Shown here piece by piece: positions 25,182 through 58,593 of a stretch of 64,000 nucleotides of DNA. The notes beneath the pieces were generated by a model that had not been told where the DNA came from, did not search any database, and was given only the letters and a program-made list of their open reading frames with translations. The DNA comes from an uncultured Bacteriovoracaceae bacterium (GTDB lineage Bacteria; Bdellovibrionota; Bacteriovoracia; Bacteriovoracales; Bacteriovoracaceae): contig CAXGUD010000021.1 of assembly GCA_964012805.1 (NCBI GenBank), positions 1-64,000 of the forward strand, read 5' to 3'. The first letter of the stretch is position 1; the number at the start of each line of letters is the position of its first letter. Both the position numbers and the translations under genes were made by a program.

Positions 25182-27926
25182 ATGAATCGTTTTTCTATGT
25201 TAATTCTTAGAATTATTGTAATTTTTGGGTTAATACTAATTAACAGAGAAGTTCATAGTTCTTCTTCTGAAGAAAAATGCTTTTCATGTAATATAAAAAT
25301 TGAAAATTTAGATAAACCTTTCCCACTAACCGGTAATTGGGCCTTTACTAGAATCGATAACTTAGAAAATAAAAACCCCAAAGAAAAATTTGGAAAGAAT
25401 TGGGTTCATATTAAGACTCCTGGTTCTTGGAAAAATGCCTATAATGATGAAAAGCTCTATAAGGTTGGCTGGTATAAAGGTAAATTTCATTTTTCAAAAG
25501 ACCTAATCGGAAAAGACGTAAGACTTTTAATCGATACTTATATGGCTGAGACAAAGGTTTACTTGGACGGTAAGGCGGTTTATGAAAGGTCAGATAAAGA
25601 TTCAGTAAACCGGTATTTTTCATTGCAGCCAATACCTATAAAATTTAAAATCACAAAAGAAAAGCATACCATTGCAATTAGAATTAATTCAATCCTCATG
25701 CAAGGAATCTATCAACTCCCTTTTCATTTAAGACCCTACAAAAAGTTTGATCCAGAACTTTCTCTTTTACTTTTTTTTGGAGGTAATTTTAGAAGTATCT
25801 CCGGCTTTGCCTTTCTCCTTTTTGGTATTTTTTTAATATTTGTTTTTTATAAAACAAAAAATGAGTTTTATCTATTTTCTGGGTTGAGTGGTTGCCTTAT
25901 CTTTCCCTTTTTCTTTTTTAACCTAGACTTTGTAACAAGCTTTATTTCACCAAAAAATGCCCTAATCGCGTCATATTTTGGGATGCCTGGAATGATGTAT
26001 ACCCAGTTTAAAGTGGCGGAACTATTTTATAAAAAATTACCTAAACTAAGTGTCTTTTATAGTTTAACTGCTTCAATCGTTGCAATAATATTTTTATACC
26101 TTTTAATCGATTTTAATATAAAGATTTTCCATATCGTTAGAACCTTTTCCTTTTTAGTCGCCTTTTTAACAAGTTTTCTTTTGTTATTCATGACTGTTAT
26201 GGGAATAAAAAACAAAGTAAGTGGAGCGAAAATATTTTTTATTGGCATAATGTGTTTAGTTATTTCAGTGTTTAATGATCTTTTCAACGCTCTAGGTTTA
26301 ATCCAATCGTACGGCCTAGTCTCATTAGGGATGATAATATCAACCACATCTATTCTGATAGTTGCAGCCAATAACTATACTGGAACCTATGTGGAAAACA
26401 AAAAACATCTAAAAGAAGTTACAGACCTTAAAGATAACTTGGAAGAAAAAGTAAAAGAAAAAACTTACGCTCTTGAACTGGAAATGGAAAGTACTGAAAT
26501 TATGATGGAACAAATCTTCAATCAGAAAAAAAAGCGCGATTTACTGCTTGGTAGTTTGAGCGAGGGTTTTTTAACAATTAATAAAGAAGGAATTATTGAA
26601 GAAGGTGCGACAAGAGTCTCTCAAGACCTCCTGGAAGTTAACTTAACAGAGTCTGAGGTAGAAAAAATAGAAATATGGGATGTCTTATTCCAAGAGGGAG
26701 AAAAAAGAGACATTTTTAAAAAATGGATTGAGAAGGTTTTTGAAAGTAAATTTTCTTTTAGAGACCTAAAAGGACTTGCACCTAAAAAATTTGAAGGAAC
26801 GAAAAAAAAACATATAGAATTAGAATTCAGACCAATTTATGAGAAAGAATCGAAAATAAAAGTAGATAAAATAGTTATTATTGCATCAGACAAAACAAAA
26901 GAAGTAGAACTAAAAGAACAATTAAATAGAGATAAAGAAAATATTGAATTTATAAATAAATGCCTTCAAAATCCTCTTGAGTTTGTGGATCTTATTTTTG
27001 ACACACAAACTCTTATCCATGATTTTTATTTTTCCTATAAAGGGGAAAAAGAACTTCTTTTTAGAGGCTTTCATACTTTAAAAGCAAGATTTGGTCTTTT
27101 TGGTTTAAAAAAAATAACAAACTTAATAGATAATATAGAAACCGCCATTTCTGAAGAGAAAGTAGGAAACATGAAAAGATCGATAAAATTATTGGATGAA
27201 AAACTGATATCCTTTATGAAAACAAATAGGATCATAGTAGAAGCTGCTAATAAAGCTCTCGTTGAAGAAGGAAGTGCCATTCAAGTCTCCGAAGTGTTAA
27301 AAAGAGCTAAACAATTTAACGTCACGTCAGATTACATAGATTATATAAAAAAAGAGTACCTTTATTCAGATATTAAAACAAAATTTGAGCGCTATGTTTC
27401 TTTAGTCAATGAATTAGCACAGAGGCAGGATAAATCAATAGAAGTAAAAATATCAGGTGAAGAAATATTGGTTGATACTAATAAATACTCAAAATTTATA
27501 AATAGCTCTATTCATATTTTTAGAAATATGGTTGATCATGGAATTGAACCTGAAGATGAAAGGATTGCTAAAACAAAACCGCAAAAAGGAAAAATTAAAC
27601 TCCTCTTTAAAAAGGATAAAAGAGACTTTGAAATAGAAATACAAGATGATGGACAAGGGATTGACCTAGATAAAATTAAGAAAAAAGCCCTCGATGATGG
27701 ATTAAAATCAAAAGATGAAATATCAAATTTTAAAAAACAAGAAATATTGAACTTAATTTTTCTTCCTGGTTTTTCAACGAAAGAAGATGTCACAGATATA
27801 TCTGGAAGAGGCGTGGGGATGGATGCAGTAAAAAAAGAAGTTATAGACCTTAACGGTGATATTCAAGTCAGCTCAAAGATAGATGAAGGAACAACCTTTG
27901 TCATTAAGTTACCTCTATTAAAATGA
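25182..27926 (+). CDS. Membrane CheA-like (class III-type) histidine kinase: beta-sandwich sensor, 7TM, HPt, HATPase; no CheW
   Basis: FRGFHTLKAR (HPt), HIFRNMVDHGIE, DDGQGID, IFLPGFST, SGRGVGMD; ends GTTFVIKLPLLK. Confidence 0.9.
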   Translation: MNRFSMLILRIIVIFGLILINREVHSSSSEEKCFSCNIKIENLDKPFPLTGNWAFTRIDNLENKNPKEKFGKNWVHIKTPGSWKNAYNDEKLYKVGWYKGKFHFSKDLIGKDVRLLIDTYMAETKVYLDGKAVYERSDKDSVNRYFSLQPIPIKFKITKEKHTIAIRINSILMQGIYQLPFHLRPYKKFDPELSLLLFFGGNFRSISGFAFLLFGIFLIFVFYKTKNEFYLFSGLSGCLIFPFFFFNLDFVTSFISPKNALIASYFGMPGMMYTQFKVAELFYKKLPKLSVFYSLTASIVAIIFLYLLIDFNIKIFHIVRTFSFLVAFLTSFLLLFMTVMGIKNKVSGAKIFFIGIMCLVISVFNDLFNALGLIQSYGLVSLGMIISTTSILIVAANNYTGTYVENKKHLKEVTDLKDNLEEKVKEKTYALELEMESTEIMMEQIFNQKKKRDLLLGSLSEGFLTINKEGIIEEGATRVSQDLLEVNLTESEVEKIEIWDVLFQEGEKRDIFKKWIEKVFESKFSFRDLKGLAPKKFEGTKKKHIELEFRPIYEKESKIKVDKIVIIASDKTKEVELKEQLNRDKENIEFINKCLQNPLEFVDLIFDTQTLIHDFYFSYKGEKELLFRGFHTLKARFGLFGLKKITNLIDNIETAISEEKVGNMKRSIKLLDEKLISFMKTNRIIVEAANKALVEEGSAIQVSEVLKRAKQFNVTSDYIDYIKKEYLYSDIKTKFERYVSLVNELAQRQDKSIEVKISGEEILVDTNKYSKFINSSIHIFRNMVDHGIEPEDERIAKTKPQKGKIKLLFKKDKRDFEIEIQDDGQGIDLDKIKKKALDDGLKSKDEISNFKKQEILNLIFLPGFSTKEDVTDISGRGVGMDAVKKEVIDLNGDIQVSSKIDEGTTFVIKLPLLK

Positions 27927-58593: not shown

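Follow-up and report, generated by a model that had tools for sequence, protein, structure and literature searches.

The window analysed here, a 64,000-nucleotide stretch of contig C21 (CAXGUD010000021.1) from an uncultured Bacteriovoracaceae bacterium, carries five intact open reading frames (ORFs), denoted K1 to K5, that encode CheA-type histidine kinases, each fused to a sensor of its own and each lacking a CheW domain (Table 1). The source genome (G000; 4.47 Mb in 130 contigs, all contigs being given below by their C numbers) is 100% complete with 1.79% contamination as judged by marker genes; the GC content is approximately 30–39%, and the nearest named relatives of the proteins are metagenome bins of Bacteriovoracales, Halobacteriovoraceae and Bdellovibrionota. 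A first-pass annotation, made from the sequence alone, had described in these ORFs a sensor, transmembrane (TM) helices, a histidine phosphotransfer (Hpt) motif and the motifs of a CheA-type ATPase. Translations and a motif scan recover FRxxHTxK, RNxxDHGIE, DDGxGI and SGRGVG in all five, Pfam and profile searches bear out the architecture, and the observation of five CheW-less, sensor-fused CheA-type kinases is confirmed.

Table 1 Kinase, receiver and methyltransferase genes of the window
Feature	Position	Strand	Description
K1	25182..27926	+	914 aa; signal peptide, ~170-aa extracytoplasmic domain, multi-TM module (aa 205-396), predicted PAS-like region, Hpt (His631, nt 27072-27074), CheA-type P4 (aa 731-914), stop directly after
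K2	28034..30838	-	934 aa; sensor type as K1; Hpt above Pfam cut-off (His633, nt 28940-28942); P4 aa 753-933
Stand-alone receiver	31009..31395	-	128 aa; between K3 (17 nt upstream) and K2 (171 nt downstream), the three being minus-strand genes
K3	31412..34033	-	873 aa; two TM helices flanking a CHASE5-like domain, weak HAMP, long helix, predicted PAS-like fold, Hpt (His471, nt 32621-32623), extra ~135-aa helical region, P4 aa 691-872
K4	37210..39852	+	880 aa; 7TMR-DISMED2 (aa 39-162), 7TMR-DISM_7TM (aa 181-385), helix, predicted PAS-like fold, Hpt (His588, nt 38971-38973), P4 aa 697-879
Class I SAM methyltransferase	39868..40752	+	Methyltransf_11, not CheR; 15 nt after K4, before the receiver gene
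Stand-alone receiver	40891..41271	+	126 aa; co-directional with K4 and the methyltransferase
Stand-alone receiver	47128..47556	+	142 aa; Pfam
Stand-alone receiver	50375..50824	-	149 aa; Pfam
K5	55852..58593	-	913 aa; 7TMR-DISMED2, 7TMR-DISM_7TM, Hpt (His630, nt 56704-56706), P4 aa 730-913
Stand-alone receiver	61349..61717	-	122 aa; 2.8 kb from K5

The annotation had the ORFs ending just past the ATPase, and this is the case: in each of the five proteins, the Pfam HATPase_c domain extends to the last one or two residues, and the chain stops 0–1 residues after the P4 profile. At E ≤ 0.01, the threshold of all Pfam scans of the five, none contains CheW or HisKA, the two domains whose presence the annotation had set against its own claim, or H-kinase_dim. 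An AlphaFold model of K4 (residues 395–880; 96-sequence alignment; pLDDT 88.3) begins with a helix, continues with an alpha/beta domain of PAS-like topology and a helical region with the Hpt histidine, and closes with a C-terminal domain, for which the top Foldseek matches are all CheA P4. Model residues 299–486 correspond to residues 354–541 of Thermotoga maritima CheA (Z 23, rmsd 2.0, 38–39% identity) and the end of the chain coincides with the end of P4 (486 aligned with 541), whereas the class I kinase HK853 matches the same domain with Z 17 and 22% identity; on these predicted structures, the kinase core of the five is CheA-like, not class I. The alignments to the P3-containing chains 4xiv and 1b3q begin at the P4 boundary, so that two short helices ahead of P4 (model residues 265–299) receive no assignment. 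A model of K3 (pLDDT 79.5) shows a long helix after the membrane and, between Hpt and P4, the extra helical region of about 135 residues.

In all five proteins, an Hpt domain with the FRxxHTxK phospho-acceptor motif takes the place of HisKA. Pfam recognises this domain above the cut-off in K2 (34.9 bits) and just below it in K3 (24.0 against 24.6) and reports no Hpt in K1, K4 and K5. A profile of the K1/K4/K5 type, built from ten paralogues, matches the P1 domain of T. maritima CheA (2ld6, E 1.2e-6; 1tqg, E 4e-6) with the phospho-histidines aligned, and also matches the Pfam-recognised Hpt domains of the paralogues, including that of the canonical CheA of this genome (hhalign probability 94.8, E 4.8e-8).

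Each kinase core is preceded by an N-terminal sensor domain. The annotation assigned sensors with seven TM helices to four of the kinases, which holds at the Pfam level for K4 (7TMR-DISMED2, 108.7 bits; 7TMR-DISM_7TM, 151.3 bits) and K5 (104.1 and 134.3 bits), whereas the 7TM match of K1 is below the cut-off (22.9 against 29), and K2 is linked to this type only through the homology of its N-terminal 381 residues to those of K1 (28% identity, E 4e-42). A hydropathy scan yields a signal peptide and 6, 4, 6 and 6 TM segments in K1, K2, K4 and K5, respectively, and two TM segments in K3, where the CHASE5 match is borderline (26.8 against 27) and HAMP is weak. K1 also contains a faint, below-cut-off match to the sugar-binding family Glyco_hydro_2_N (E 0.0098), which, apart from the general background on DISMED2 domains, is the sole hint towards the annotation's suggestion that the sensors may detect prey or surface glycans. 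The PAS-like region of the annotation survives as a prediction, from the alpha/beta domain of the AlphaFold models and sub-threshold PAS_9 matches at this site in two paralogues. The sensor of K1 is shared with K2 (25182–26381 and 29639–30838), its core groups with K4 and K5, and its best overall paralogue is a long form of the family (C13:81215–85159); this mismatch suggests that sensors and kinase cores may have been exchanged between subfamilies.

By this domain content, the five are membrane sensor histidine kinases with a CheA-type Hpt domain and ATPase and no detectable P3 or P5, and we consider it likely that they work as self-contained enzymes of the "class III" type that would phosphorylate CheY-like receivers.

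The class III histidine kinases (HKIII), as reportedly defined by Adebali, Petukh, Reznik, Tishkov, Upadhyay and Zhulin in 2017 (J Bacteriol 199:e00218-17), are said to consist of their own sensor followed by Hpt and a CheA-type catalytic domain, to lack HisKA, the CheA dimerisation domain and CheW, and to work with single-domain response regulators and CheX phosphatases. Many of these systems, although not all, reportedly include an unorthodox soluble chemoreceptor, pilT is said to be present in the same genome, and there are said to be one or few copies per genome. Our comparison is limited to these features. The five resemble HKIII in the N-terminal sensor of their own, Hpt instead of HisKA, the CheA-type P4, the lack of P3 and P5, and pilT in the genome (TIGR01420, 469.8 bits against a cut-off of 319.1). 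They differ in that most forms here are membrane-bound with 7TMR-DISM or CHASE5 sensors, the CheX-like genes lie apart from the kinases, a soluble chemoreceptor was not found and, as detailed below, 74 CheA-type ORFs (one canonical) are present instead of the reported one or few. The annotation conceded that a sensor-Hpt-HATPase architecture is not new, and it is indeed matched by the class III kinases as well as by Bd2406, to which we return. RetS and LadS of Pseudomonas aeruginosa are likewise said to be 7TMR-DISM receptors; they would share the 7TMR-DISMED2 and 7TMR-DISM_7TM input with K4 and K5 and differ in output, reportedly a HisKA-type hybrid kinase there as opposed to Hpt and a CheA-type ATPase here.

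CheA is usually presented as a kinase that has no sensor and functions only within receptor arrays. Compared with the canonical (class II) CheA structures of T. maritima and Escherichia coli (1b3q, 1i58, 4xiv and 8c5v), the five share the P1-type Hpt with its phospho-histidine motif and the P4 fold (35–41% identity) but have no detected P3 or P5, an internal rather than N-terminal Hpt and a transmembrane sensor each. In the survey by Berry, Andrianova and Zhulin 2023 (PMC10782961), the CheA core is given as P1, P3, P4 and P5, of which only P1 and P4 were found in the five. The survey reports CheW in all 13,673 CheAs of a set taken from MiST CheA calls, so that proteins such as K1–K5 lie outside its coverage. 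Closer to home, Bd2406 of Bdellovibrio bacteriovorus HD100, from the same phylum, is described in PMC6428892 as a soluble PAS-HPT-HATPase_c protein, termed a CheA homologue and one of three in this strain, which is cut by a stop codon in HD100 and the N-terminal part of which bound RomR in a two-hybrid test. Bd2406 resembles the five in combining PAS, Hpt and HATPase_c and differs in being soluble, the five being membrane-bound. The more distant matches of K4 are mostly soluble PAS, Hpt and HATPase_c proteins of about 640 aa, and the three CheA homologues described for HD100 fit the three P4 matches per genome in one family of the phylum.

A search of the genome with a profile of the five P4 domains recovered a CheA-type P4 in 74 ORFs, which lie on average some 60 kb apart and together occupy 4.7% of the genome. 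Contig ends truncate two of them; among the 72 with a stop codon, 67 end at most 12 residues after P4, two end at 28–35 residues, and three have long tails, namely, the canonical CheA on C58 and two neighbouring genes with a tail of 231 residues. In a Pfam scan (E ≤ 1e-4) of 68 paralogues, with a 112-aa fragment left out (73 proteins in total with the five), CheW and H-kinase_dim appeared only in the C58 gene, which serves as the positive control for detection of P3 and CheW, and neither was found in the 67 non-canonical paralogues. Across the genome, H-kinase_dim has a single match at E ≤ 0.1, in the canonical CheA, and the CheW domain is confined to this CheA and its neighbour. The sole canonical CheA (C58:12277–15306; REC-Hpt-H-kinase_dim-HATPase_c-CheW) adjoins a 293-aa CheW-domain protein amid housekeeping genes. 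The input domains of the 73 proteins include 7TMR-DISM_7TM in 34 (K1 being below the curated cut-off), DISMED2 in 15, CHASE5 in six (K3 borderline) and an N-terminal receiver in two, and HisKA-HATPase-REC modules precede Hpt-P4 in three. Own-family Hpt profiles match 72 of the 74 paralogues; over 14 P4 catalytic columns, the K4 residue is kept in 69–74 of the 74, and the N-box Asn in 72.

Several members of this family depart from the layout of the five. A second Hpt-like domain, some 140 residues beyond the first and frequently with an HTxK of its own, is present in about 25 long paralogues, most of the forms of 1116–1358 aa (for example, C3:15619–19104, C13:81215–85159 and C15:55321–59397); some 300 further residues with no domain match separate it from P4, a layout that recalls ChpA-type CheAs. 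Three proteins (C4:109624–113682, C32:8663–12403 and C32:4832–8611) combine a complete class I module (HisKA-HATPase_c-REC or REC-REC) with a C-terminal CheA-type P4, so that two kinase classes are present in one chain, with Hpt in two of the three. The two genes with the 231-residue C-terminal tail (C3:20795–23386 and C3:24107–26704) encode PAS-Hpt-P4 kinases; the tail of the first has no Pfam match at E ≤ 5 and could be a new regulatory domain at the position of P5.

The annotation read the five genes as a local array. No other stretch of the genome is as rich in these genes; when the 74 copies are scattered at random, however, some 33.4-kb span contains at least five in 7.1% of 2000 trials (P ~0.07). 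The five are 24–46% identical to each other, fall into two deep clades (K1, K4 and K5 versus K2 and K3), and only K5 has its nearest paralogue inside the window (K4). The chance-level density, the low identity and the two clades make the five a sample of a genome-wide family and not a local tandem array. Each window kinase also has relatives of higher identity elsewhere among metagenome proteins. A P4 tree with canonical CheAs recovers clade A, clade B and the canonical CheAs, leaving open the order among the three, and places the genome's own CheA on a long branch within clade A with weak support (0.6).

A family of this size invites the suspicion of decaying CheA remnants, or of a count inflated by assembly or binning, given that there are a few fragments (112, 246 and 370 aa), that four ORFs are cut by contig ends and that the genome is in 130 contigs. 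This explanation, which we regard as wholly improbable, is contradicted by the intact frames (590–1358 aa), the kept catalytic residues and the same expansion in two other genomes of the genus (see below); further, the paralogues are at most about 50% identical, contamination is 1.79%, and each window gene has the higher-identity relatives just mentioned.

The annotation's statement that the window contains no MCP (methyl-accepting chemotaxis protein), CheW, CheR or CheB gene is correct for the 48 other ORFs, selected by us, that were scanned with Pfam (32 + 16), none of which has CheW, MCPsignal, CheR, CheB or CheX. Its description of the system as MCP-independent extends beyond the window, to the whole of this genome, complete by marker genes: there are no MCPsignal matches in G000, and hence no soluble chemoreceptor was found, and the single CheA-CheW pair lies on another contig. 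The CheR and CheB domains in the genome occur only within large fusion frames (867–1089 aa; C31:21–1418, C2:137990–138517, C4:104270–104767 and C18:57755–58291), at least three of which also contain HisKA, and are not stand-alone adaptation enzymes. HisKA has 38 matches in the genome, all outside the five, compared with 73 non-canonical CheA-type kinase ORFs. Given these 74 CheA-type kinase genes and the lack of any chemoreceptor gene found, the lineage likely does much of its sensing through self-contained kinases.

The genome does encode one REC-CheA and the 293-aa CheW-domain protein on C58, and one of the other genus genomes (G002) has an MCP-like gene near two such kinases, so the CheW-less kinases could still depend on this pair, or on an undetected receptor, for activation. 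We deem this very unlikely: the docking domain P5 is absent, with 69 of the 72 ORFs that have a stop codon ending at most 35 residues after P4, every kinase has a sensor of its own, and G000 has no MCP match.

Five stand-alone receiver genes, absent from the annotation, were identified in the window with Pfam (Table 1). All five products keep D10, D55, T85 and K106-P107, that is, the acidic pocket, the phospho-Asp, the Thr and the Lys-Pro. The nearest such gene is 17 nt from K3, 171 nt from K2 and 1039 nt from K4; for K1 and K5, the distance is at least 2.7 kb. All three members of the K3 subclade have a stand-alone receiver gene 14–25 nt downstream on the same strand, and the product of 31009–31395 is likely the cognate receiver of K3. 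Genome-wide, 142 REC ORFs were found, of which 84 are stand-alone (≤175 aa) and 38 are of 176–600 aa, and a stand-alone receiver lies at most 500 nt from 14 of the 74 kinases. CheX-like proteins have 14 matches, seven above the cut-off, including three genes in tandem (C3:97883–99384). The genome contains fliM in addition to pilT, and neither the fliM nor the pilT contig has a receiver or CheX-like gene. At the one ortholog locus checked, the neighbours differ, giving no evidence that the link between K4 and the methyltransferase is conserved. A promoter and terminator scan of 24900–41600 was uninformative on operons (53 promoter-like and 15 terminator-like sites, compared with 54.9 and 10.4, respectively, in shuffles).

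The kinases could serve ordinary two-component gene regulation, with the CheA-type core replacing a HisKA core and the single-domain receivers starting phosphorelays that end on DNA-binding regulators. The long paralogues have two Hpt domains and three paralogues are HisKA-HATPase-REC(-REC)-Hpt-P4 hybrids, so multi-step relays exist in this kinase family, and 7TMR-DISM, CHASE5, HAMP and PAS sensors are typical of transcriptional two-component systems. Regulators with an output domain, however, are matched in size by only about 38 REC ORFs, a number already equalled by the 38 HisKA matches, and no DNA-binding regulator adjoins any of the five window kinases; we regard this explanation as possible but doubtful.

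Counts made genome-wide and in relatives, as the annotation had suggested, show the expansion to be genus-specific. With the P4 profile at E ≤ 1e-10, there are 75 matches in G000 and 48 and 64 in the other two genomes of the genus (72% and 68% complete, respectively), compared with 0–10 in 38 relatives (0–10 in 22 other genera of the family, 0–3 in other families). Among 300 further genomes of the phylum (≥80% complete), the maximum is seven, with only 11 candidates per genome scored, on which scale G000 reads 11. Among the genomes sampled, the expansion, which the annotation had called lineage-specific, occurs in this genus alone. MCPsignal has no match in G000 and G001 and one gene in G002 (C68:29864–31237; a 650-aa frame with two matched parts, less than 10 kb from two CheW-less kinases), the only MCP-like gene in the genus; in the family, 16 of 24 genomes have 2–19 matches each. 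CheX-like matches number 14, 13 and 6 in the genus versus 1, 3 and 7 in three relatives, and REC matches 107 and 142 in two incomplete genus genomes versus 53, 65 and 101 in the three relatives, both being higher in the genus than in two of these relatives, with the third, which has 10 CheA-type matches, intermediate. Because the genomes compared are kin, this kinase and receiver pattern represents one event and not a statistical trend.

A stronger form of the annotation's reading is chemotaxis without arrays, whereby the MCP-CheW-CheA lattice would be replaced by some 70 receptor-kinase fusions, the CheY-like products of which would target the flagellar switch or pilus motor, with CheX-like proteins providing a fast reset. 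The genome has fliM and pilT although no MCP was found in it; most of the REC set consists of single-domain receivers (84 of 142), CheX-like genes are more numerous in the genus, and the relatives with few such kinases have the 2–19 MCP matches. Weighed against this are the fliM and pilT contigs, which lack receiver and CheX-like genes, the lack of the usual adaptation enzymes, with CheR and CheB domains only in the large fusion frames, the putative status of a FliM-binding CheY among the receivers, and the fact that MCP loss and kinase gain constitute one evolutionary event in one genus. We therefore treat such motility control tentatively, as one of the less probable outcomes. The full form of the idea, that the genus has given up the array and that about 70 receptor-fused kinases, each its own receptor, feed about 80 CheY-like proteins reset by CheX-like phosphatases and so guide flagellar or pilus motility with neither MCPs nor CheW coupling nor adaptation by methylation, appears more speculative still and is, in our estimate, rather unlikely.

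Returning to the reading of K1–K5 as self-contained sensor kinases, the mechanism that we infer from domain content, conserved residues and gene linkage would lead from the sensor through the Hpt histidine to a CheY-like receiver. A signal would be perceived at the extracytoplasmic sensor, which is 7TMR-DISMED2 with the 7TM module in K4 and K5, CHASE5-like in K3 and, in K1 and K2, an unnamed domain coupled to a 7TM-like module. By way of the membrane module and then the long helix, it would reach the predicted PAS-like domain and alter phosphorylation of the Hpt histidine by the P4 ATPase. The phosphoryl group would then move to single-domain CheY-like receivers, in the case of K3 presumably the one encoded 17 nt downstream, and CheX-like phosphatases would reset these. 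Given that most of the likely partners have no output domain, an output in behaviour (flagellar or pilus motility, or protein-protein switches) seems more likely than direct transcription; this final step is the weakest of the scheme.

The stretch from K2 to K3 was found, at least in part (≥0.14 of sampled words), in 17 marine or seawater metagenome runs from 10 studies, two possible DNA sources being set aside. In one marine metatranscriptome library, 11 short contigs, 95–99% identical, map to K2, the receiver and K3, and one of them (31115–31531) bridges the junction between K3 and the receiver, a weak hint of expression of the three genes. Two other RNA runs contained nothing on this stretch, which is no proof of absence.

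A number of observations weigh against the proposed reading. K1 and K5 have no stand-alone receiver gene within 2.7 kb, 60 of the 74 kinases have none within 500 nt, and the nearest CheX-like gene is 5.4 kb from any of these kinases. The short pre-P4 helices of K4 (265–299) and the helical region of about 135 aa in K3 mean that a vestigial or novel dimerisation element may be present. The P4 tree leaves open whether the two CheW-less clades have one origin, the kinase-versus-receiver counts are coarse and come from six related, non-independent genomes, the RNA-library contigs may derive from DNA in the library, and a two-gene contig does not prove one transcript. Finally, autophosphorylation, the phospho-site and the partners are all things that we infer from sequence.

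None of the 120 best matches of K4 contains CheW or H-kinase_dim, and all 118 of these with a full-length P4 match end at most 23 residues after this domain. Among the matches of K3 are proteins without CheW whose sensors are HAMP, dCache, Reg_prop/Y_Y_Y, CBS and 4HB_MCP, some of them from Oligoflexia, and canonical CheAs join these matches only at scores under about 146 bits. Hpt-HATPase clusters from several phyla are recorded in the Atlas, which we treat as leads only. Among 1.84 billion cluster representatives, the Hpt-linker module of the K1/K4/K5 type has 282 matches at E ≤ 1e-3, 60 at 1e-10 and 25 at 1e-30, with a profile that, being built from G000, is biased towards its own kind; given only 25 matches at E ≤ 1e-30, a large share of the known diversity of this module lies in this lineage. 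One public-library protein of 4858 residues matches the Hpt profile in 31 separate stretches, a giant multi-Hpt protein.

The architecture is of a known but little-studied kind. What is new are the membrane-bound 7TMR-DISM and CHASE5 forms, the genus-specific 48–75 copies, more numerous than the classical kinases, the abundance, in parallel, of single-domain receivers and of CheX-like genes, and the lack of any MCP genes found in G000. In a literature search with subscription papers outside its scope, we found no description of this expansion and, among the papers listed, no relevant report on histidine kinases or CheA of Halobacteriovorax and none on 7TMR-DISM in Bdellovibrio-like predators; a 2024 comparative genomics study of Bdellovibrionota (PMC11656739) nowhere mentions histidine kinase, CheA, chemotaxis, two-component, methyl-accepting or response regulator. 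A form of CheA, sensor-fused and CheW-less, that is named in the literature and barely studied is the main sensor kinase class in this genome. If the kinases are active, they provide dozens of natural fusions of sensors to cores, from which the regulation of a CheA core that lacks P3 and P5 could be learned, and the genus would be a natural test of whether motile bacteria can navigate without chemoreceptor arrays.

Elsewhere in the window, there are genes for an adenylate/guanylate cyclase, a thrombospondin C-terminal-like protein, an 803-aa transglutaminase-elicitor-like protein and a phospholipase D-like protein (258–1472, 1528–2298, 51351–53762 and 53955–55748).

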